The notes below the pieces were generated by a model that searched no databases, was not told where the DNA came from, and saw nothing but the letters and a program-made list of their open reading frames with translations. Positions 1-8,178 of a stretch of 8,178 nucleotides of DNA are shown here, piece after piece. The DNA comes from Nitrosomonas europaea (GTDB lineage: Bacteria; Pseudomonadota; Gammaproteobacteria; Burkholderiales; Nitrosomonadaceae): the NCBI RefSeq assembly GCF_900167395.1, contig NZ_FUWK01000062.1, forward strand, positions 1-8,178. Direction: 5' to 3'. Numbering within the stretch: position 1 is the stretch's first letter; each line of letters opens with the position of its first letter. The position numbers and the translations under genes are program-made.

Positions 1-319
1 CAGAGGATCGCAATACGTGTCGATCCGTTATACCGAACGTCTGGCACAAGCCGGTATTGAACCGTCTGTCGGCAGTCGCGGTGACAGTTACGATAATGCG
101 CTGGCTGAAACGATCAATGGCCTGTACAAGGCTGAACTGATACACAGGAGAGCTCCCTGGAAAACCAGGGCTGCTGTGGAGCTGGCAACTTTGGAATGGG
201 TTGCCTGGTATAACCATCAACGCCTGCTTGGATCTATCGGGTATATTCCTCCAGCTCAGGCTGAAGAAAACTACCGACAAACCCAGGATAATAAGACATT
301 GATGGATATTTTACTTTAA
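1..319 (+). CDS. IS3-family transposase OrfB (DDE/rve integrase core), C-terminal part; 5' end lies outside the window
   Basis: The frame is open from nt 2 and reads RGSQYVSIRYTERLAQAGIEPSVGSRGDSYDNALAETINGLYKAELIH...WYNHQRLLGSIGYIPPAQAEENY. That covers the (HSD)RGSQY motif, the GDSYDNALAE..NG.YK.E block and the YN..R.H..LGY..P tail typical of IS3-family (IS51/IS6110-like) OrfB. Stop at 317-319. Confidence 0.9.
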   Translation, partial: RGSQYVSIRYTERLAQAGIEPSVGSRGDSYDNALAETINGLYKAELIHRRAPWKTRAAVELATLEWVAWYNHQRLLGSIGYIPPAQAEENYRQTQDNKTLMDILL

Positions 320-354
320 CCAAATAGCCTCCTCGATTGTCGGGACGGTTCACA
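1..354 (+). mobile_element. Right end of an IS3-family insertion sequence (transposase 3' end plus terminal inverted repeat)
   Basis: Downstream of the transposase stop the sequence ...CGATTGTCGGGACGGTTCA(CA) ends at 352/354. Read inward from that end it is TG(TG)AACCGTCCCGACAATCG, giving the TG...CA termini of IS3-family IRs. It shares the GACAATC block with the IR at 3544. The exact terminus (352 vs 354) is ambiguous. Confidence 0.55.
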
Positions 355-383
355 ATGGAGTTACATCTTAGAGTAAAGAGCAG

Positions 384-842
384 TCATGAACGAAGCCTGG
401 AATCGAATGTAAAATTACGGATAATTTCAATCGTAACTTCTTTCATCATTGGATGATTTGGGTTGATGACTATGTTTCGAGCCTCTGGAATTACCGCTGA
501 CGGCACAATTAAACCGAGATATTTTCCATTGAGTAAGAAAGAATCACCATAGGTAGCTGCAGTTGGAGATCCGGGAAGGGCACTCCAACCATCTGGTAAA
601 GCATCAGGCGGCGGAATTTTGTAAAGGCTATTATCATCCGGCAAAGTCATTCTGACAACCACAAGATTCAGTGGAAGATTCGAACCTGTATGTACCAGCT
701 TCTCCATAGCAGCGATTCCCAGCGAGAGACCAGCATAAATTGCTGGTATGCTGGCGCTATTCCAGCGTTGACCTTTTATGCTGGCTCCATATCCGGTACG
801 GTCCAGAGCAAATTCTTTTCTGGAAATTCTCCAGACAAACAC
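384..842 (-). CDS. RES-domain toxin (NAD+-targeting type II TA toxin of the RES-Xre / ParT-MbcT type)
   Basis: 152 aa carrying the three signature positions in order: GQRWN (Arg), AAMEKLVH (Glu) and IVPSAVIPEARNIVINPNHP (Ser). GTG start; GGAGG lies about 9 nt upstream. Its start overlaps the upstream antitoxin stop by 1 nt (TAGTG). Confidence 0.9.
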   Translation of the reverse strand: MFVWRISRKEFALDRTGYGASIKGQRWNSASIPAIYAGLSLGIAAMEKLVHTGSNLPLNLVVVRMTLPDDNSLYKIPPPDALPDGWSALPGSPTAATYGDSFLLNGKYLGLIVPSAVIPEARNIVINPNHPMMKEVTIEIIRNFTFDSRLRS

Positions 843-1297
843 TAGGCAATGCCTCCATAAGCAATGGAAGCCAAAACTTTCCTTACTTCATCAGCACCCA
901 TATCAGTATCAAGTAACGATAGAGGGGATTCGCCCAAAGCCAGATTAGATTCGAGCATCCAACGCTTCGCCAGATCTGAAGAATCAAAAACTTTTTCTGC
1001 TTCGGCCTCGATTAGTGCAATTCGTGCCAATCTCTCGGATTCCAAAGGACCAAGTTTTCCGCTCGATCTGATCTTTCTGGTAATGGTTGCATCAGAGATA
1101 CCAAGTAACTTTGAAAGTTTTGCTTGAGATATACCGTAGTACCGCCCGGCACCAACTAAATGAGTTACTTTTACTCCATCTCGCACCATCTTAATCCTTT
1201 TAGCCGGAGGCATTTTCAGGATCGTCATGCCCCATTCCAGGAAAGAATGTCCGGATGATATTTCCTTTTGTTTGGCTTGTTTTCGCTCAATGTTCAT
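842..1297 (-). CDS. Xre-family HTH antitoxin with C-terminal DUF2384 (ParS/MbcA toxin-binding) domain
   Basis: HTH-like YGISQAKLSKLLGISDATITRKI is followed by GKLGPLESERLARIALIEAEAEKVFDSSDLAKRWMLESNLALGESPLSLLDTDMGADEVRKVLASIAYG, the classic DUF2384 pattern. It sits directly upstream of the RES toxin. The longest ORF starts at 1297 with no SD. An internal ATG at 1189 (MVRDG...) is preceded by AAGGA 5 nt upstream and may be the true start. Confidence 0.85.
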   Translation of the reverse strand: MNIERKQAKQKEISSGHSFLEWGMTILKMPPAKRIKMVRDGVKVTHLVGAGRYYGISQAKLSKLLGISDATITRKIRSSGKLGPLESERLARIALIEAEAEKVFDSSDLAKRWMLESNLALGESPLSLLDTDMGADEVRKVLASIAYGGIA

Positions 1298-1375
1298 TAT
1301 TTAATACAGTCAAATGATTAGATATTTACACTCGAAAGATTATATCATTAATAAAGATAAGGATTCTATTCAAAG

Positions 1376-1575
1376 TGACCTGACCAGCCTTTTTCGATTT
1401 AAGGGAACTTGAGACAATGTCATCTTGACGAGAGAAAGGCGTATGAAGAAGACGCAATACAGTGATGAACAGATCGTCCGGATCCTGCGGAAACGGACAA
1501 GGATACAGTGGCCGAGATTGTCAGGCGCTACACACCTGGCGCAAGGAATACGGTAGCATGGTGATCGAAATGTAG
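1376..1575 (+). pseudogene. Decayed left end of an IS3-family IS: terminal IR plus frameshifted/deleted orfA remnant
   Basis: TGACCTGACCAGCC... at 1376 is an IS3-type terminal IR and has the same TGACCTG start as the IR at 3544. The ATG at 1443 opens MKKTQYSDEQIVRILR, and two shifted frames then give ETDKDTVAEIVRRY and TWRKEYGSMVIEM*. These are the conserved IS3 OrfA blocks (HTH ... TWRK.YG), but they are spread over three frames with internal deletion. Confidence 0.65.
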
Positions 1576-1656
1576 CATCTATTGGCCTGTGCTTTTCTTC
1601 TATGGCCAGGGCAATGGCTAGCCGTGGGTTCGACGACGACAATCCCCGTAGCCTCT

Positions 1657-1945
1657 TCATTTTTGTCAGTTTTACGATGTGCTGTGTAGGTAATCCTCTA
1701 CAAAATAGTGGTGAATGGAGGAATTACCAAGCCATATGCACATAAAGGCCGCGATGATTACCAGAACGAAGAGGAGATTCTTCTGCTTGTGCAATTTCCT
1801 CTTCTTTTCTTCTGGCGGGAAGCTTACTCCCCCGAACGAAATTTTTGTAGCAGCATGAAAACCGTGGTCGATCCCCATTTTTCTGCACACACCGTCTTGA
1901 TAGCATCGGCAGACAAAAATCCTGGAATTATCAGTATACGTACGT
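1657..1945 (+). repeat. Copy A of a ~289-bp dispersed direct repeat (partner at 4158-4446)
   Basis: Hand alignment to 4158-4446 shows long identical runs, e.g. CTACAAAATAGTGGTGAATGGAGG, CGCGATGATTACCAGAACGAAGAG, TGCTTGTGCAATTTCCTCTTCTTTT, AAATTTTTGTAGCAGCATGAAAAC and ACCGTCTTGATAGCA. Scattered transitions plus a 3-nt and a 2-nt indel separate the copies. Identity is high from about 1684 and weaker back to about 1657. Confidence 0.85.
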
Positions 1946-1994
1946 AACCCATGGGATCGTTTCTTCAAGGAAAAGTACTTTTGATCATTGTCAC

Positions 1995-2189
1995 ATGGTT
2001 AAAGTAAAAACGCCTTTTCCTGAGGGGTTCTCACCGATAGGCATGAGTGGGAGCGCGCTATACGGTATGGACCGGAATGGAAATGTTCGATTTGGTGGTG
2101 CTGTAATTGAATTCAACGAATACACAAACGAATATATGGTTATTGGTGCAGCCATCCTGTCAGGGTTGCTTGGTCATGAAAATGCCTAA
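1995..2189 (+). CDS. Hypothetical 64-aa cassette ORF, possibly the 3' remnant of a longer gene truncated by the repeat/IS insertion
   Basis: The ORF ends with its TAA inside the R'' box GCCTAAC of the following attC, which is typical for cassette genes. The frame stays open upstream of the ATG into repeat A. It contains GMSGSALYG, faintly like a serine-hydrolase GxSGx motif. No SD is evident. Confidence 0.35.
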   Translation: MVKVKTPFPEGFSPIGMSGSALYGMDRNGNVRFGGAVIEFNEYTNEYMVIGAAILSGLLGHENA

Positions 2190-2261
2190 CAAGGCCATTA
2201 AGTTCGCTCCCTGCGGTCGCCGGACGTTCGCAAGCTCGCGCCGTTTATGGCGGCGTTAGAG
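2184..2261 (+). other. Integron attC recombination site #1 (R'' GCCTAAC 2184-2190 ... R' GTTAGAG 2255-2261)
   Basis: R'' fits RYYYAAC and R' is close to GTTRRRY. An imperfect palindrome lies between them (GCCATTAA / TTTATGGC arms and a GC-rich centre). Total length is 78 bp. The TTAGAGC following the predicted G|TT crossover is the reverse complement of the R'' at the end of the next cassette (2786-2793). Confidence 0.75.
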
Positions 2262-2277
2262 CATATCATCCAGATAC

Positions 2278-2313
2278 TTGATTCCCACTCAATAAAGGTA
2301 TACTTTCTATACC
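2278..2313 (+). promoter_or_regulatory. Putative brnTA promoter with overlapping palindromic operator
   Basis: TTGATT (2278-2283), a 15-nt spacer, then TATACT (2299-2304). The inverted repeat GGTATA (2297-2302) / TATACC (2308-2313) overlaps the -10 and abuts the ATG at 2314. No SD is present, which would imply a leaderless or near-leaderless mRNA. Motif matches only. Confidence 0.3.
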
Positions 2314-2577
2314 ATGATAGCTTTTGAGTTTGACGAGGCAAAGAGTCAGGCCAATCTTCTGAAACATGGCATCAGCTTTGTTGATGCTCAAGCATTATGG
2401 AATGACCCAAGATTACTGGAGATTCCCGCAAAAACAGAAGATGAACCACGATACCTTATGATAGGGCTGATTAACGGCAAACACTGGTCTGCCGTTATCA
2501 CTTACAGGGGTACAAATATCAGGCTTATTTCCGTTCGTTGCTCACGTACCGAGGAGGTGACACTATATGAAAGCTAA
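2314..2577 (+). CDS. brnT: BrnT (DUF497) ribonuclease toxin of a type II TA system
   Basis: 87 aa. FEFDEAKSQANLLKHGISFVDAQALWNDP...RYLMIGLINGKHWSAVITYRGTNIRLISVRCSRTEE matches the BrnT/DUF497 layout (FEWD..K...N..KHG.SF.EA..VF.DP ... IRIISAR.A...E). It overlaps the downstream antitoxin by 11 nt. Confidence 0.9.
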   Translation: MIAFEFDEAKSQANLLKHGISFVDAQALWNDPRLLEIPAKTEDEPRYLMIGLINGKHWSAVITYRGTNIRLISVRCSRTEEVTLYES

Positions 2578-2818
2578 AGATTTTGAACAGCAGTTTGACG
2601 AAGGCGTTGATATTACTGCTTCGCTGGATTTGTCAAAGGCAAAGCGCGTATTGCAAGAGCAAAAACGTGTCAATGTCGATTTCCCAACGTGGATGATTGA
2701 GTCTCTTGACCGGGAAGCTGAAAAGCTTGGTGTGACCAGGCAATCTATCATTAAGGTGTGGCTTGCCGAACGCCTCGAAAAGGCTGCTCTAACCCATCCA
2801 TCAAGCGGGACGCGCTAA
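2567..2818 (+). CDS. brnA: BrnA-type / CopG ribbon-helix-helix antitoxin partner of BrnT
   Basis: 83 aa. KRVNVDFPTWMIESLDREAEKLGVTRQSIIKVWLAERLEK is an RHH (beta strand plus two helices) module. GAGGAGG lies 7-9 nt upstream of the ATG. The C-terminal tail and stop codon are encoded inside attC #2. Confidence 0.85.
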   Translation: MKAKDFEQQFDEGVDITASLDLSKAKRVLQEQKRVNVDFPTWMIESLDREAEKLGVTRQSIIKVWLAERLEKAALTHPSSGTR

Positions 2819-2846
2819 AGCGCGCCCCTTATGTCCAACGTTAGCC
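2786..2846 (+). other. Integron attC recombination site #2 (R'' (G)CTCTAAC 2786-2793 ... R' GTTAGCC 2840-2846)
   Basis: The arms CATcAAGCGGGaCGCGC / GCGCGCCCCTTATG pair, leaving an unpaired C (2802, = G on the bottom strand) and A. The spacer is TCCAAC before GTT. GCTCTAAC is the exact reverse complement of GTTAGAGC at the start of the same cassette (2255-2262). Confidence 0.75.
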
Positions 2847-2891
2847 TGCAATTGAAGCGATTGCATATTGCGTCGTACGTACAATATACGT

Positions 2892-3156
2892 ATGAGTCTA
2901 TCCTTCGAGTGGGATCCAGAACCTGCGCAAGCATGGTGTTTCGTTCGAAGAGGCTGCGTCAGTGTTCTCCGACGAGCGAGCTCGCCTCATTGACGATCCC
3001 GACCATTCGGCTGAGGAGGAACGGTTCGTCTTGCTGGGTTTCAGCGCGAATCTTCGAGTCCTTGTCGTGGTTCATTGTTACCGGAGATCTGGAAGCACGA
3101 TTCGCCTTATTTCCGCCCGGAAGGCGACACGAGAGGAGAGGCGGTTTTACCCATAG
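2892..3156 (+). pseudogene. brnT-like (DUF497) toxin gene inactivated by a frameshifting deletion near codon 10
   Basis: The ATG at 2892 gives MSLSFEWDPE. The conserved continuation NLRKHGVSFEEAASVFSDERARLIDDPDHSAEEERFVLLGFSANLRVLVVVHCYRRSGSTIRLISARKATREERRFY is in the +1 frame from 2920. About 3-4 codons that normally sit between FEWDP. and NLRKHG are missing. The original frame stops after 33 codons. Confidence 0.8.
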
Positions 3157-3158
3157 GT

Positions 3159-3374
3159 ATGCCCATGAGACAACAGTATGACTTCAGTTCATCGAGGAAG
3201 AATCCCTACGCTGCGAAGCTCAAGAAGCCGGTGACGATTCGGCTGGACGAGGAGTCGATTTCCTACTTCAAGTCGATGTCCGAGGAAACTGGCATTCCGT
3301 ATCAGAGCTTGATCAATCTCTATCTGAAGGAATGCGCAGCATCAGGTAAGCGGCTGAATCTCTCGTGGAAGTAG
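3159..3374 (+). CDS. brnA: BrnA-family antitoxin (COG3514 / BrnA_antitoxin type), apparently intact
   Basis: MPMRQQYDFSSSRKNPYAAKLKKPVTIRLDEESISYFKSMSEETGIPYQSLINLYLKECAASGKRLNLSWK matches the family pattern YDFS.a.rNPYa..LKK.VTIRLD.d.i.YFK.la.etGipYQtLINlyLrdCa. The ATG at 3159 lies just after the brnT pseudogene stop. The 99-aa ORF on the track (start 3075) is an upstream extension. Confidence 0.85.
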   Translation: MPMRQQYDFSSSRKNPYAAKLKKPVTIRLDEESISYFKSMSEETGIPYQSLINLYLKECAASGKRLNLSWK

Positions 3375-3379
3375 CGCGT

Positions 3380-3451
3380 TGCCGTCTAACAATTAAGGTT
3401 ATGTCGTGATCGCGAAGCGAACCACGGCATAACCTTAATTGTTAGACGGCA
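3380..3451 (+). other. Integron attC site #3 (R'' GTCTAAC 3384-3390 ... R' GTTAGAC 3441-3447) forming a near-perfect 29-bp-stem hairpin
   Basis: TGCCGTCTAACAATTAAGGTTATGTCGTG (3380-3408) is the reverse complement of 3423-3451 with a single T/C difference. The loop contains CGCGAAGCG. The R boxes fit RYYYAAC/GTTRRRY perfectly. The site starts 6 nt after the brnA stop. Its R'' side is 10/12 complementary to the start of its cassette (GTTAGCCTGCAA at 2840). Confidence 0.7.
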
Positions 3452-3543
3452 GTTGCGTCAGCTTGAGTACTTTCATTTTTTTGAATTGCTCTCAATGCGA
3501 CCTGGTAGCAGTCGTCAACATGAGAATTTCCAACTAACTTCAT

Positions 3544-4161
3544 TGACCTGGTCAAGTAAAAGCGGACAATCCAGTTAAGCAACATATTTCAACATTTCCA
3601 TTTCTGCCTCATATTGGTTTGGACTTTTGTAGCCCAAGTATGAATGCAGTCGATGGCTGTTATAAAGCAGGAAATATACTGCAGCACATCTTGCTGTGCT
3701 GCATAGCGAGTCAGGTAGCATTGCCGATGGATTTGCTCCTGTTTAAGGCTACCGAATAAGCGCTCAGCCACTGAATCATGCCGGACCTTGTCCTCTTGCT
3801 TGTCAGATCGCGAAACTGCGCTACGCTTGTTTTCCCAACAATTTCCCACACGACTCATACTGCCGATAAAACCATGTATTTTTAAAAGTTGGCGGTACTG
3901 TTTGCTGGCGTATTGCGATCCACGATTCGAATGTGCTATCAGTCCTGCTTATGGTTGACGTTGCCAGACAGCCATTTGCAATGCATCACAAACCAGTTTT
4001 GCTTTCATTCTTGTACTCATACTCCAGCCGACCATCGTCAGATCACGCAAGGGTCGCAAGGTAGAAAGTCTGGCGACAATAATGGTCGATGAGGTACTGA
4101 CGAAACTTGCAACTATTCTGGATTGAAGGGAAGGGAAGGGATGCGATGGTGAAGAGCTCAT
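3544..4161 (-). pseudogene. IS3-family transposase orfB remnant with its terminal IR; 5'-truncated, with an in-frame stop and a mutated catalytic motif
   Basis: The minus strand reads ...DLTMVGWSMSTRMKAKLVCDALQMAVWQRQP*AGLIAHSNRGSQYASKQYRQLLKIHGFIGSMSRVGNCWEN...VAERLFGSLKQEQIH...RYAAQQDVLQYI. These are IS3 OrfB blocks in order. There is a TAA at 3949-3951, HSNRGSQY replaces HSDRGSQY, and there is an odd insertion after GNCW. The N-terminal ~100 codons and orfA are absent. The terminal IR TGACCTGGTCAAGTAAAAGCGGACAATCC starts at 3544. Confidence 0.85.
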
Positions 4162-4446
4162 TTACTCATTTTTTATCGGGACGTGTTGTGTACGGTAATC
4201 CCCTACAAAATAGTGGTGAATGGAGGGATTATCAAGCCACATGCACATAAAGGTCGCGATGATTACCAGAACGAAGAGAAGATTCTTTTGCTTGTGCAAT
4301 TTCCTCTTCTTTTGTTCTGGTGGGCTTATTCTCCCGAATGAAATTTTTGTAGCAGCATGAAAACTGTGGTTGATCCTCATTTTTCTGCACACCGTCTTGA
4401 TAGCAATCGACAGACAAAAATCTCGGAACAGCCAGCATACGTGTCA
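4158..4446 (+). repeat. Copy B of the ~289-bp dispersed direct repeat (partner at 1657-1945)
   Basis: See copy A. It has the same orientation and begins exactly where the IS3 orfB remnant is truncated. Similarity ends around CATACGT (4436-4442). Confidence 0.85.
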
Positions 4447-4770
4447 ACAACTTCAATATGAATGATCATCCAGATTCAGGATCCTGGATGTTGATATATC
4501 AGCCACCCTCACTCTCACCGTAATAAACAGATAATTCTTCCTTTACTCGTTGATTGAGATCAACTTCAAACGCAGCAGAATGCCTGAAACCTCATTTTTG
4601 AAATTTCAAAGGAGCTGTTTTTCTCCTGATCAAGGTAGCAAGCCGCTGCGAAGCTGATCGAATGAGCAAGGTGTAATCAGGACAGAAGATTGCGATATTT
4701 CACTCATGCAGTTCTTTTAATTCAAAATCTTACTGAATAATGAGTTTTGTTATACACCTATTTACAAAGA

Positions 4771-4807
4771 AGTATGCACCGCTTGCGGTGCATACTAAAC
4801 GTTGGGC
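4771..4807 (+). other. Hairpin plus R' core site GTTGGGC: 3' part of an attC whose R'' half I cannot find (probable attC remnant)
   Basis: AGTATGCACCG-CTTG-CGGTGCATACT (4771-4796) is a perfect 11-bp stem. It is followed by the spacer AAAC and GTTGGGC (4801-4807), the same L'-spacer-R' layout as attC #2 and #4 (..TCCAAC GTTAGCC, ..TTCAAC GTTAGGC). No RYYYAAC box is visible upstream. Confidence 0.45.
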
Positions 4808-4833
4808 GTCACACTGAACCTTCTGAGGCAACG

Positions 4834-5250
4834 ATGGACGAAAACTCACAGGCTAATAAGCACAAACATCTTGACTTCATTCAGGCTGCAATCAATCGAA
4901 TGGCAGGTAACTTGTTCTTGCTAAAAGGCTGGAGTATCACGTTGATTGCCGCATTGTTTGCACTAGCTGCGAAAGACTCAAACAAGCTCTACATCGTAAT
5001 CGCGTATTTCCCCTTATTTATTTTCTGGGCGTTAGACGGCTACTTTCTAAGCCAAGAACGCAAGTTCCGAGCCCTGTACGACCACGTTCGCACTCTCGAT
5101 GAGTCTCAGATTGACTTTTCGATGGACACAAGACCATTTAGCAGCGATATCCGAAATACGTGGGCTGGCTCTGCGTCGTCCAAGACCCTTGTTGTTTACT
5201 ACGCTGGGCTGGCTGTTGTAATGCTCATTCTCATGTACGTAGTGCGGTAG
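4834..5250 (+). CDS. Small (138 aa) predicted 3-TM membrane protein of unknown family; first gene of the TM + TIR cassette
   Basis: The ATG at 4834 has GAGG 5 nt upstream and lies 32 nt inside the cassette boundary. The track's longer start (4747, TTG) would begin in the preceding attC remnant. Hydrophobic segments are WSITLIAALFALAA, LYIVIAYFPLFIFWALDGYFL and TLVVYYAGLAVVMLILMYVV. There is an amphipathic N-terminus (HLDFIQAAINRMAGNLFLLKGW) and a polar ~45-aa loop (SQERKFRALYDHVRTLDESQIDFSMDTRPFSSDIRNTW). Confidence 0.75.
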   Translation: MDENSQANKHKHLDFIQAAINRMAGNLFLLKGWSITLIAALFALAAKDSNKLYIVIAYFPLFIFWALDGYFLSQERKFRALYDHVRTLDESQIDFSMDTRPFSSDIRNTWAGSASSKTLVVYYAGLAVVMLILMYVVR

Positions 5251-5269
5251 TTACCAAAGGAGAGGATTG

Positions 5270-5776
5270 GTGGCACGAAAATGTTTTTATAGCTTTCACT
5301 ATCAGCCAGATAACTGGCGTGCCTCTACTGTGCGCCAAATTGGAGCTATCGAAGGTAACCAACCGGCCAAAGACAATGATTGGGAGTCGATTGCTAGCGG
5401 CGCCAATCAAGACGAGAAAATCAAGCGCTGGATCGCAGAACAAATGCAAGGCCGCACTTGCACGATTGTTCTTGTCGGCACATCTACCGCTAATCGCAAA
5501 TGGATCAATCACGAGATAGTTAAGTCCTGGAATGATGGGCTGGGTGTGGTCGGAATTCGAATTCATGGCCTAAAGGATCGAAACGGAAATACGTCAGCAA
5601 TGGGGAAAAACCCTTTCGATCACATAACTCATGGCCCAAGTAAGAAGCCGCTTTCCTCTCTCGTCAAGTGCTATAACCCTGCGGGTGCTACCAGTCAGGA
5701 TCGTTACGCATGGATTGCTCAGCACCTCGAAAATGCAGTGGCAGAAGCAATACGAATCCGAAAAGCGAACTCGTAA
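5270..5776 (+). CDS. thsB: ThsB-like TIR-domain protein (DUF1863 / TIR-like family)
   Basis: MARKCFYSFHYQPDNWRASTVRQ..., ...CTIVLVGTSTANRKWINHEIVKSWNDGLGVVGIRIHGLKDRNGNTSAMGKNPFDHI parallels my recollection of Bacillus cereus ThsB (KRVFFSFHYQ...FRVNVVRN; VTCVLIGSQTFNRRWVRYEIMKSIEKGNKIIGIHINAFKDKYGN...GPNPFDYL). This includes the W..x.EI glutamate expected of TIR NADases. AGGAG lies 7 nt upstream of the GTG at 5270. The TTG at 5267 is an alternative start. Confidence 0.9.
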   Translation: MARKCFYSFHYQPDNWRASTVRQIGAIEGNQPAKDNDWESIASGANQDEKIKRWIAEQMQGRTCTIVLVGTSTANRKWINHEIVKSWNDGLGVVGIRIHGLKDRNGNTSAMGKNPFDHITHGPSKKPLSSLVKCYNPAGATSQDRYAWIAQHLENAVAEAIRIRKANS

Positions 5777-5785
5777 CAAAGTGAC

Positions 5786-5857
5786 GCCCAACCCTTCGGT
5801 CAAGAGGGACGCTCCGCCGGCAAGCCGGCTACGCGCCTCTTACCTTCAACGTTAGGC
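5786..5857 (+). other. Integron attC recombination site #4 (R'' GCCCAAC 5786-5792 ... R' GTTAGGC 5851-5857)
   Basis: 72 bp. The arms GGTcAAGAGG (5798-5808) / CCTCTTACC (5836-5844) pair with one unpaired C (5801, = extrahelical G on the bottom strand, as in canonical attC). The palindromic centre is GCCGGCAAGCCGGC. The spacer is TTCAAC before GTT. GTGACGCCCAAC (5781-5792) is the exact reverse complement of GTTGGGCGTCAC at the cassette start (4801-4812). Confidence 0.85.
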
Positions 5858-5937
5858 ATCAGTCGTTCGCATCTCTCACGTGCAGTGATAAATAGCTATG
5901 GTGGAGACATCCACCATCAAACTTATAGGAGAAAACT

Positions 5938-6168
5938 ATGTCAAAAGAAATAGCTTATGTGTCCGTACAACTTGACGATAACGTCCCTGAGTACATGGAT
6001 GGGATAATTCGCTGTGGCTCCGTCACATCTCAAGACGAAGATGGTAACGACCTGCAAGACCACCAAGAGCTTATCGACAACGCGGAGTTCCGCTCGGAAG
6101 ATGAACTTATCAGCTACGTCGCTAGCAAGCTTGGAGTTAGCAAGGATATTGTTGGCATTGATGCCTAA
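5938..6168 (+). CDS. Hypothetical highly acidic 76-aa protein (single-gene cassette)
   Basis: AGGAG lies 7 nt upstream of the ATG. The composition is about 18 Asp/Glu against 5 Lys/Arg by hand count (QDEDGNDLQDHQELIDNAEFRSEDE). The stop TAA (6166-6168) sits in the R'' box of the cassette's attC. I recognise no family. Confidence 0.7.
   Translation: MSKEIAYVSVQLDDNVPEYMDGIIRCGSVTSQDEDGNDLQDHQELIDNAEFRSEDELISYVASKLGVSKDIVGIDA
6157..6167 (+). other. Left fragment of attC #5 (R'' box GCCTA|AC interrupted by the group II intron)
   Basis: TTGATGCCTA (to 6167) joined to ACAA (8175-8178) gives TTGATGCCTAACAA. This restores R'' GCCTAAC. It is complementary to the cassette start GTTAGGCATCAG (5851-5862) at 11/12 positions and identical to the ATGCCTAACAA of attC #1 (2182-2192). 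Confidence 0.75.
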
Positions 6169-6236
6169 TCGGGTAGCTGGGAGCTTTTAACTCCCAGCCC
6201 CCACACCACCCACCGTGCGGGTCCGCAGTAGGCGGT
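6168..6236 (-). ncRNA. Group II intron domain V (6205-6236) and domain VI with bulged branch-point A (6174)
   Basis: DV RNA is ACCGCCUAC-UGCG-GACC-CGCA-CG-GUGGGUGGU: a 9-bp lower helix (with a CGC triad containing a G.U pair), a 2-nt CG bulge, a 4-bp upper helix and a tetraloop. In DVI, GCUGGGAG/CUCCCAGC form an 8-bp helix extended by GGG/CCC, with an unpaired A at 6174, the 7th nt from the 3' splice site. Folded by hand. Confidence 0.8.
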
Positions 6237-6268
6237 TCAACGAGCGTGCTCGTGTGACGACGACGCCT

Positions 6269-7582
6269 TCAACCCTTGTCCGGCCCGTAGCTCTGTGCTT
6301 TGCACCACAGGTCTTTGATGCTGAGCAGTCCCTGTGCCCTGAGCCAGTCGTTGGACATGGCCTGTTGGGTCACCGGAGTTCTGGCCATGCGCCAATAGCT
6401 CAGGCTGCTCACGCCGTGTTGGATGGCAGCCTTCAGCGGTATGCCCAAGTCCAGCAGGTGCCGGATCTTAGTGCGCGCCCAGCGCCACTGTTTCCAGTAG
6501 CACATACGCACCCGACGTCGGATCCATTCGTCCAGTTCCGGGATCGGCCGGTAGTACTGGCTGATCCCGTAGTACCCGAACCATCCCCGCAGATACTGAC
6601 CGAGCTTTTCCAGCCGGTACTCCATGCTGACGCCCCAACTTCTGCCGGTGAGTTGCCGCACCCGATGCTTGAAATTCGCCAGGGATTTCTCTGTCCAGCG
6701 GATCTTCTTGCCCACAAGAGTGAAGCCTAGAAAGCTGCATTCACTCATCGGTGCGACTTGGCTCTTGGCCAGGTTCACGGTGAGCTTGAGGGTGGATTGC
6801 AGGAAGTACGTGAGGCTTTGCATCACCCGCTCGGCCGCGCGTCGGGACTTGACCAGGATGATCACATCGTCGGCGTAGCGGGCGAAGCGGTGTCCGCGGC
6901 GTTCCAGTTCGAGATCGAACTGGTGCAGCAGGACGTTGGCCAACAGCGGCGAGAGCGGCCCGCCTTGCGGCGTGCCCACCTCGCTGGGTTGGGGGTGCTC
7001 CCCGACCAGCACCCCGGCGCGCAGGTAGCGCCCGATCAGGGCCAGCAGTCGCTTGTCGGCGATGCTTCGACTCAGCAGGCTCATCAACAGGTCATGGTTG
7101 ACGTTGTCGAAGAACCTGGCCAAGTCCAGATCTACCGCCCAACGGTAGCCGGCCTTCACGTGCGCCTGCACCTGGCGGATCGCCTGGTGTGCATTGCGGC
7201 CCGGTCGGAAGCCGAAGCTCGATGCCGAAAAGCCCGGATCGAAGATCGGTATGAGCACCTGGGCGATGGCCTGCTGGATGACCCGGTCCGTGACGGTCGG
7301 GATGCCCAGTTGCCGTTGGCCGCCATCGGGCTTGGGGATATCCACCCGTCGCACCGGTTGCGGCCGATATCGCCCGGCCTCGATCTGCTCGCGCGTGGCT
7401 GGCCAGTGTGCGCGGGCGTGTTCGGGCCATTCCGCCGTGGTCACGCCGTCGATACCCGGCGCCCCCCTATTGGATTTGACCCTGCGCCACGCCCGCGCCA
7501 GGTTGTCTCTGGCCAGCACGGCCTCGAGCAGGTCTTGGCCGTCTTGGTTATGGTCGTCGTCTTGGTTCAAGGCTCGGTGCAT
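6269..7582 (-). CDS. ltrA: Group II intron-encoded reverse transcriptase/maturase (RT + X domains, no En domain)
   Basis: 437 aa. It has NRGAPGIDG (RT1), RRVDIPKPDGGQRQLGIPTVTDRVIQQA (RT2/3), FGFRPGRNAHQA (RT4), DLDLARFFDNVNHD, GTPQGGPLSPLLANV (RT5), FARYADDVIILV (YADD, RT5/6), FLGF (RT7) and the maturase X motif LGQYLRGWFGYYG. The protein ends shortly afterwards, so there is no HNH endonuclease. Confidence 0.95.
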   Translation of the reverse strand: MHRALNQDDDHNQDGQDLLEAVLARDNLARAWRRVKSNRGAPGIDGVTTAEWPEHARAHWPATREQIEAGRYRPQPVRRVDIPKPDGGQRQLGIPTVTDRVIQQAIAQVLIPIFDPGFSASSFGFRPGRNAHQAIRQVQAHVKAGYRWAVDLDLARFFDNVNHDLLMSLLSRSIADKRLLALIGRYLRAGVLVGEHPQPSEVGTPQGGPLSPLLANVLLHQFDLELERRGHRFARYADDVIILVKSRRAAERVMQSLTYFLQSTLKLTVNLAKSQVAPMSECSFLGFTLVGKKIRWTEKSLANFKHRVRQLTGRSWGVSMEYRLEKLGQYLRGWFGYYGISQYYRPIPELDEWIRRRVRMCYWKQWRWARTKIRHLLDLGIPLKAAIQHGVSSLSYWRMARTPVTQQAMSNDWLRAQGLLSIKDLWCKAQSYGPDKG

Positions 7583-8178
7583 GCCGACCGCCGCCGTGCC
7601 TGGCCCATGCGGGCTTCATCGGTTTGGTCGAGTTCGGTCACGTCTGCTCCTTAGTATCTCGTTGTTCAGCCCTTCGGCAGCCCGACACCTGGCTGCCTAC
7701 TATGGCTTCTGCTGACTTCTGCACCGTCACGCCCACCGTTGCCAGTGGACGCGCTGCCCGTCTGATCGTGCGTCGCTGCCGGTTTCTTCGCTCGTGGCGG
7801 GCAGCTCGCCACGGCTCCTGGTCCTTGGTTGCCCGGTGGGACCGGCCGGGTCATCGTCACGATCAGGCTGGCCGCCGTCAGCACAGACCTCCCCAGGTAA
7901 GAACGCGAACTGTCGGTGCACAAGCGCCGCATTTACCGTGGCCGGCGTACCGTTGGGCTTCGCTGTCATGTGCCAGCTCGCCTCGCCTGCCTCGGCCTTC
8001 TATGCGGTTTCTGTCCGTCGCCTCGCACCTCTTGCACTCCGGCTTCCTCCAGACAATCCCTCACGGGCTTGCCCTTGCCTTCGGCTCGTGGTTATACTCG
8101 GTTCACAATGAATCCAAGTCGGTACTCCCACAGGGGACTTGCACCCCATAAGTTCGCGCCCATGCTGGGCGCACACAA

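Follow-up and report, generated by a model that had tools for sequence, protein, structure and literature searches.

Type V Thoeris combines ThsB, a TIR protein, with ThsF, an effector with three transmembrane segments that its describers labelled DUF2270 (Yirmiya et al. 2025, bioRxiv 10.64898/2025.12.03.692087). In that work the pair surfaced through defence-island enrichment, the model of ThsF was a homo-heptameric ring in which positively charged pockets lie between the protomers, and phage defence was validated for the systems of Bacillus thuringiensis DAR 81934 and Bacillus sp. 1NLA3E. The B. thuringiensis system defends Bacillus subtilis; infection induces 3' cyclic ADP-ribose (3'cADPR), which is toxic when supplied from outside, and defence is blocked by the sponge Tad1 (Yirmiya et al. 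2025). A second description is purely computational: PDC-M50, a PADLOC candidate since 2023-2024, which 'guilt-by-embedding' brought out as the cassette FAM_00415>>FAM_00416, is counted 57 times in RefSeq and named in a supplementary table of Payne et al. (2024, bioRxiv 10.1101/2024.01.29.577857). Here we analyse a stretch of 8,178 nucleotides from Nitrosomonas europaea (contig NZ_FUWK01000062.1, positions 1 to 8,178; below, the window), which holds an integron cassette of 1050 bp with two genes, thsF and thsB, at 4802..5851 on the plus strand. Judged by its relatives, this cassette very probably carries a type V Thoeris anti-phage system.

The identity of the system follows from direct comparison of both proteins. 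The product of gene 1 (thsF, PDC-M50A in PADLOC; 4834..5250, plus strand) matches the PDC-M50A model with an E value of 1.3e-54 and that of gene 2 (thsB; 5270..5776, plus strand) matches PDC-M50B at 5.9e-62, both over their full length. To find the validated ThsF we started from the ThsB sequence of B. thuringiensis DAR 81934 in Table S1 of Yirmiya et al., which led to a 100% identical protein (P0270) and from there to its contig in the B. cereus-group assembly GCA_900108905.1 (locus L014), where a 141-aa gene (4773-5198) lies 14 nt downstream of the TIR gene and is the B. thuringiensis ThsF (BtThsF). Gene 1 is 44% identical to BtThsF over 131 of its 138 residues (E 6e-42) and BtThsF itself matches PDC-M50A at 1.8e-48; because the validated ThsF and gene 1 both match this model, PDC-M50 and type V Thoeris are one and the same. 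The second gene leads to the same place, as 154 of 154 residues of its TIR are identical to Table S1 entry 2606838437 (an IMG gene), which is listed as 'DUF2270 - Type V' and assigned to TIR cluster 2661146773. The system is therefore already described and its TIR sequence already catalogued as type V. The initial annotation, made from the sequence of the window, had proposed a variant of Thoeris whose membrane effector is gated by a signal, which fits type V well; the novelty that it implied falls away, since the pair belongs to a known subtype. The type V system of B. thuringiensis is adjoined by a Gabija system.

Gene 1 encodes a protein of 138 aa, running from ATG 4834 to TAG 5250 with a Shine-Dalgarno sequence (GAGG, 4825-4828) 5 nt upstream of the start. 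We take ATG 4834 as the true start because of the conservation among homologues and the position of the cassette junction; public gene calls give 158 aa and the mechanical open reading frame (ORF) 167 aa, both beginning upstream of 4802 (window 4747-4833; P0001). Hydropathy places hydrophobic segments at about residues 27-46, 54-72 and 118-137, a pattern shared with BtThsF, and between the last two lies a polar loop of 45 residues (73-117) rich in charged residues. An AlphaFold2 monomer model with a mean confidence score (pLDDT) of 95.7 has helices at 5-48, 52-87 and 117-136, so that the three hydrophobic helices and the loop of about 45 residues seen by the initial annotation are borne out. 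Its statement that the protein is without a SIR2, SLOG or Macro domain also stands, as Pfam gave no SIR2 or SLOG match at E<=1 and no Macro match. Foldseek comparison of the model with the PDB returned nothing below E 0.5, only generic helical hairpins, and recovered no SLATT-, Cap15- or channel-like fold from the solved structures; SLATT is likewise absent from the Pfam matches of gene 1 and of 111 diverse relatives. No Pfam or NCBIfam family scored above its curated cutoff for gene 1: NCBIfam was empty, DUF3278 reached E 0.01, and for DUF2270 (PF10028), with its cutoff of 25 bits, the score was 11.4 (E 0.25). Among the 111 relatives, 7 match DUF2270 at E<=0.01 and 15 touch DUF3278, all weakly. 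With so few matches in the family, the DUF2270 label expresses a remote relationship and is of no use as a criterion of membership, and we relied on direct comparison with ThsF instead. As a side observation, weak similarities of BtThsF and gene 1 lead to DUF3278 and to 8xMP, an 'octameric membrane protein' family (E 0.012), and one relative of 351 aa (P0163) is either a fusion of 8xMP with a ThsF-like module or a merged gene call.

Gene 2 lies in the same direction as gene 1 and begins 19 nt behind it if read from GTG 5270 (168 aa) or 16 nt behind it if read from TTG 5267 (169 aa), with a Shine-Dalgarno sequence AAGGAG at 5256-5261; the two co-directional genes, each with its own ribosome-binding site, are thus as the initial annotation had them. 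Its product matches Pfam ThsB_TIR (PF08937) at 1.7e-30 and the PADLOC model ThsB1 at 2.5e-63, and aligns with the ThsB of B. cereus (BcThsB, PDB 6LHY/9B7D; E 5.7e-19). In this alignment E82, within the motif WINHEIV, falls on the glutamate of the BcThsB RYEI motif, in agreement with the earlier recognition of a ThsB/DUF1863-type TIR with its glutamate in place. A TIR homologue on a B. cereus plasmid was set aside for these comparisons because its neighbours are SIR2 and TIR genes and not ThsF. Across five orthologous pairs the nonsynonymous divergence (dN) of both genes is 0.10-0.19 while synonymous sites are saturated, which leaves no ratio of the two (dN/dS) and permits only the qualitative statement that both genes are under purifying selection.

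The two genes are enclosed by the junctions of a cassette, read in the sequence as CTAAAC-G/TTGGGC (4801/4802) and TTCAAC-G/TTAGGC (5851/5852). At the 3' side lies an attC site at 5786..5857 (plus strand), with R'' GCCCAAC at 5786-5792, R' GTTAGGC at 5851-5857 and the crossover at 5851/5852. An attC scan and folding together show that it fits the R'' (RYYYAAC) and R' (GTTRRRY) cores, the bulged bottom-strand hairpin and the G/TT crossover expected of such sites; the bottom strand folds at -19.4 kcal/mol (z -3.0, a value reached by 0 of 200 shuffles) and the top strand at -14.1. At the 5' side, the R' core GTTGGGC of the upstream site occupies 4801..4807 (plus strand), and its crossover between G4801 and T4802 is the 5' boundary of the cassette, 32 nt before the ATG of gene 1, a distance given correctly by the initial annotation. 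Ahead of it stands a perfect 12-bp hairpin at 4771..4796, an inverted repeat of 100% complementarity left over from the preceding recombination site; by fold and sequence this upstream element consists of the hairpin and the R' core only, with no R'' and no R''/R' pairing found, so that 'attC remnant', as it had been called, is a fair term.

The cassette ends had also been described as 12-nt reverse complements of each other. The complementarity is exact, GTTGGGCGTCAC (4801-4812) being the reverse complement of GTGACGCCCAAC (5781-5792) and the sole such match of at least 9 nt in the window, but the 3' partner, instead of standing at the very end of the cassette, lies about 60 nt further in and forms the R'' end of the attC, with the extended complementarity to the cassette start beginning at 5781, 5' of R'' itself. 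A position on the R'' side rather than in the last bases is the geometry expected of a real cassette. Other genomes bear this out. Similarity between the window and a Rhizobacter locus (L003) starts at GTTGGGCGTCAC and stops just past AACGTTAGGC, with unrelated flanks; there the same gene pair lies inside a long array of short co-directional cassettes, and the equivalent attC folds at -32.9 kcal/mol (z -9.1). In a Burkholderiales genome (L019), a Nevskiaceae genome (L022) and a Pseudomonadales genome (L023) the cassette again starts with the reverse complement of its own R'' while the sequences themselves differ, for example GTTGGGCGCT and AGCGCCCAAC as start and R'' in Nevskiaceae, and GTTAGACGTCAC and GTGACGTCTAAC in Pseudomonadales. 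The same thsF-thsB cassette with co-varying attC ends is thus present in at least four other genomes. From the junctions, the attC fold and these comparisons we take the boundaries at 4802-5851, which the initial annotation had placed at the same junctions, to be genuine. In Ideonella (L007/L024) the cassette ends have decayed, and the cassette signature was not found in L004 or L008 nor in any locus ordered thsB then thsF. With ends intact in some genomes and no signature in others, the integron-borne form is one sub-lineage of a wider family.

Several observations weigh against assigning the cassette to type V as a working defence system. Compared pairwise, gene 2 and the validated ThsB of the B. 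thuringiensis type V pair show no significant similarity outside the WIxHEI motif. Gene 2 clusters with the TIRs of type XI, one of which shares 40% identity with it (E 6e-28) and belongs to the same cluster 2661146773. The published DUF2270 label is not reproduced by Pfam for gene 1 or for the validated ThsF, as hmmscan gave no DUF2270 match for BtThsF, and Yirmiya et al. (2025) themselves warn of noisy effector labels in Table S1. Within type V, the system of Vibrio cholerae ZWU0020 gave no defence in Escherichia coli and 3'cADPR failed to set off the validated system of Bacillus sp. 1NLA3E (Yirmiya et al. 2025), and for the clade of the window a defence role would be drawn from relatives. 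A promoter scan of 4400-6000 returned 1 site against 2.5 expected, that is, no enrichment, and insertion sequence (IS) fragments and a group II intron break up the array around the cassette, so the cassette may be silent. Taken against the full-length matches to both PDC-M50 models, the homology to BtThsF and the identical Table S1 entry, these points leave the assignment to type V very probable.

The last of these points leads to the alternative that survives best, namely that by descent the pair is a true type V Thoeris, but that this copy is silent or decaying, its cassette being without a promoter and far from that of the integron, in a disrupted array. Neither the cassette nor the sequence just ahead of it shows a promoter signal, what remains of the upstream attC is a hairpin, IS3 fragments (3589-4161) and the group II intron (6269-8070) interrupt the array, and in Ideonella the cassette ends are found in decayed form. 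However, both ORFs are intact, with their Shine-Dalgarno sites and all family-invariant residues present, and two independent sequencing runs gave the identical copy. Silent storage is moreover common for cassettes of chromosomal arrays, which still function once moved, and a promoter and terminator scan without enrichment of promoter-like sites allows no inference on expression in either direction. We consider a silent or decaying copy unlikely on balance, although far from negligible; silent storage is plausible as far as expression is concerned and would not change the identity of the system.

How the pair behaves in other genomes bears on what its two proteins do. The ThsF family comprises 4684 representative clusters at 50% identity (E<=1e-3), and in every genomic context that we read (L001, L003-L010) a ThsB_TIR gene is adjacent to the ThsF homologue and co-oriented with it. 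The initial annotation had proposed a survey of how often the membrane protein sits next to such TIR genes; at 35 of 42 loci in GTDB representative genomes a TIR gene from a limited panel adjoins the ThsF homologue on the same strand. No identical copy occurs among the GTDB representative genomes, where the best match is 86% (in a genome labelled Planctomycetota) and most matches are in Burkholderiales. The TIR partner itself varies. At loci L025-L043 (GTDB, mostly Burkholderiales), TIR genes whose products share only 36-48% identity with the ThsB of the window precede ThsF homologues that share 65-76% with gene 1, and on Terribacillus, Priestia and Klebsiella plasmids ThsF homologues stand beside TIRs of the B. 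thuringiensis type. A conserved ThsF with divergent TIRs in reversed order indicates that the effector is kept while the signal-maker is exchanged. The ThsF module can also be coupled to a sensor directly. In the metagenome contig ERZ27315079 k141_7716811 (L016, 2689-5137), one operon holds a TIR_2 gene, a gene of 152 aa and the gene for a 378-aa protein (P0140) in which an N-terminal SLOG cluster-2 domain (1.7e-15) and, at the C-terminus, a ThsF-like membrane module (profile E 2e-40) are fused. This fusion makes the module an output of SLOG-sensor effectors as well and supports a membrane module that answers to a nucleotide signal.

Two further loci deserve mention for themselves. On the Streptomyces sp. 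NBC_00724 plasmid NZ_CP108986.1 (L013, 2938-5393) a ThsF-like gene with 41% identity to gene 1 neighbours a HIT-domain gene and a gene for a 510-aa TIR; this may be a two-effector locus, the HIT domain being the effector class of type XI. On three metagenome contigs (L004-L006, about 6001-6931) thsF-thsB lies outside an integron. Two further TIR_2 proteins are encoded close by, as are one DUF4365 and one SLOG cluster-3 protein, in what looks like a TIR-rich defence island.

The mechanism that we propose starts from the gene and cassette structure, the homology to a validated ThsF, the ThsB family with its catalytic glutamate and the conserved pairing, all established above, and borrows anti-phage defence, the 3'cADPR signal and the oligomeric channel model from the literature on relatives. 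ThsB (5270-5776) would be the sensor, its TIR domain with E82 turning NAD+ into a messenger of the cyclic ADP-ribose (cADPR) type on infection. ThsF (4834-5250) would be the effector in the inner membrane, with the N-terminal helix and the loop 73-117 both predicted to be cytoplasmic by the positive-inside rule. Conserved residues on this predicted cytoplasmic face are H12, Q17, R22, K31, D68, E75 and R79. By analogy with the published model, a ring-shaped homo-oligomer of ThsF may take up the messenger between its subunits, in pockets of positive charge at the cytoplasmic face, and the bound form would open or disrupt the membrane so that growth stops or the cell dies before phage release (abortive infection). 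Both genes would be expressed as one operon from transcription that enters the promoterless cassette from upstream, on which activity in the native host would depend, and an integron integrase could move the whole system.

The signal is the step on which relatives disagree. As a default guess, by analogy, it would be 3'cADPR, and this guess stands at about even odds. The ThsB of the window is dissimilar to the validated type V ThsB and shares 40% identity with TIRs of type XI, for which none of 3'cADPR, 2'cADPR, cADPR, N7-cADPR and His-ADPR was detected (Yirmiya et al. 2025), and it has a further relative in BcThsB of type I, which makes 3'cADPR according to the same authors; added to this, the 1NLA3E system is unresponsive to 3'cADPR and the Vibrio system does not defend in E. 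coli. Together these make the identity of the signal uncertain. A tentative extension, possible but rather less likely than the default guess, is that the clade of the window joins ThsF to a TIR of the type XI cluster whose signal is a novel TIR product, with ThsF as a minimal 138-aa receptor-pore tuned to that molecule. Shared or swapped signals fit the neighbouring ThsF-like, HIT and TIR genes of the Streptomyces plasmid and the free exchange of TIR partners around ThsF; as the TIR of that plasmid is unrelated in sequence to the ThsB of the window, it lends weak support to a signal shared between type V and type XI.

The division of labour could also be the reverse, with the TIR as an NADase effector that depletes NAD+ and the membrane protein as its sensor, anchor or regulator, for instance of membrane events induced by the phage. 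Bacterial TIRs are often NADase effectors in CBASS, Pycsar, pAgo and Avs contexts, Yirmiya et al. (2025) hold that such a role cannot be excluded for unverified configurations, and none of the known signal molecules was detected for the type XI TIRs of its cluster (Yirmiya et al. 2025). What speaks against it is first the B. thuringiensis homologue, whose system is toxic on external 3'cADPR and whose defence is blocked by Tad1. The ThsF-type module fused to a SLOG ligand sensor beside a TIR gene would lie downstream of a nucleotide signal, the retention of ThsF while TIRs are swapped around it fits a common effector with interchangeable signal-makers, and the TIR of the window groups with signalling ThsBs (BcThsB of type I, and type XI). 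The initial annotation had offered a TIR effector anchored or controlled by the membrane protein as its second reading; on this evidence we regard it as improbable and favour ThsB as the signal-maker and ThsF as the effector.

It is hardly credible that the pair is instead an addiction or stabilisation module of the toxin-antitoxin (TA) kind, or serves a membrane function unrelated to phage, kept in a TA-rich chromosomal array: the neighbouring RES/Xre and two BrnT/BrnA pairs and the fact that type I toxins are commonly small membrane proteins suggest it, but gene 1 is directly homologous to an experimentally validated defence effector, two independent screens (guilt-by-embedding and defence-island enrichment) picked out the pair, defence-type neighbours occur in L004-L006 and L014, and no housekeeping or transport family in Pfam or NCBIfam was matched.

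Elsewhere in the window, further attC sites lie at 3384-3447 (within 3380-3451), with near-perfect 29-nt arms of 97% complementarity and the cores R'' GTCTAAC and R' GTTAGAC, and, in the attC scan, more weakly at 2184-2261, which together indicate an array; no intI integrase lies within the 8.2-kb window. These two sites bracket two BrnT/BrnA TA cassettes (2314-2818 and 2962-3374), the BrnT copy of the second being truncated at its N-terminus. A RES/Xre TA pair occupies 384-1297 on the opposite strand, IS3-family fragments lie at 3589-4161 and an orfA-like IS3 transposase fragment at 1425-1556. TA cassettes, IS3 fragments, the group II intron and the other attC sites all fit a chromosomal cassette array. 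An element of about 250 nt is present in two copies (1689-1941 and 4194-4442; 78-93% identity in three blocks), both close to IS3-family transposase fragments, and an IS end, a miniature inverted-repeat transposable element or part of a cassette is conceivable.

The group II intron occupies 6269-8070 on the minus strand and probably extends from about 6190 to beyond 8178. Its reverse transcriptase/maturase ORF lies at 6269-7582 (RVT_1 1.7e-40, GIIM 1.4e-19) and its RNA domains D1-D4 at 7669-8070 (Rfam RF02001, RF01998). The intron starts directly past a cassette with a 76-aa ORF (5938-6168), at the position where the attC of that cassette is expected, is oriented opposite to the cassettes and resembles the group IIC introns that target attC sites.

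What the locus adds is a further instance of a published family, and integron-cassette carriage of defence systems has been reported before, for brc22 and brc23. Its value lies in three points. Direct sequence comparison equates the PADLOC candidate PDC-M50 with the validated type V Thoeris. A sub-lineage in which thsF precedes thsB and the TIR is type XI-like is in circulation as a real two-gene integron cassette in several Burkholderiales-type genomes, from which it follows that a whole immune system of the signalling kind can be moved by integrons in a single recombination event. Finally, the cassette of about 1.05 kb is a compact and easily cloned representative of the TIR clade to which the type XI-like signal question attaches.

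Set beside the described systems, the cassette shares with type I and type II Thoeris (ThsA with SIR2-SLOG; ThsC with Macro-2TM, that is, two transmembrane segments) a ThsB-type (DUF1863) TIR that has the catalytic glutamate and is a homologue of BcThsB, and with type II an effector that acts at the membrane, as is predicted here for ThsF. It differs from both in a partner of at most half the size, with neither SIR2, SLOG nor Macro and no separate globular sensor domain. From type VII Thoeris and other SLATT effectors it is set apart by an effector without a SLATT domain match. Type XI Thoeris (ThsB with the HIT hydrolase ThsL) has the related TIR already described, but the effector of the window is ThsF and not a HIT hydrolase, and Pfam finds no HIT domain in the cassette. 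The likeness to PDC-M50 is that of two adjacent genes matching the A and B hidden Markov models over their full length, PDC-M50 being a computational candidate to which no mechanism was attached.

Closest in their carriage are the cassettes brc22 ('Tragantia') and brc23 of mobile integrons, which contain ThsB and confer phage resistance (bioRxiv 10.1101/2024.07.02.601719). They too hold a ThsB homologue and a membrane protein in one cassette, yet ThsB is their first ORF and its partner is a protein of about 300 aa with a Deva-like octameric fold, where the window has the 138-aa ThsF; and theirs are mobile integrons, whereas the array of the window, with its TA cassettes, IS elements and intron, looks chromosomal and not of the class 1 type. 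With type V Thoeris the agreement is in the architecture itself, a two-gene operon of a TIR and a three-transmembrane effector of about 140 aa. Within that architecture the window has thsF before thsB where Bacillus has thsB before thsF, and it bears the pair on an integron cassette, in what is probably a Burkholderiales-like host. Its TIR falls into another cluster (2661146773), and pairwise comparison with the validated type V TIRs detects no similarity.

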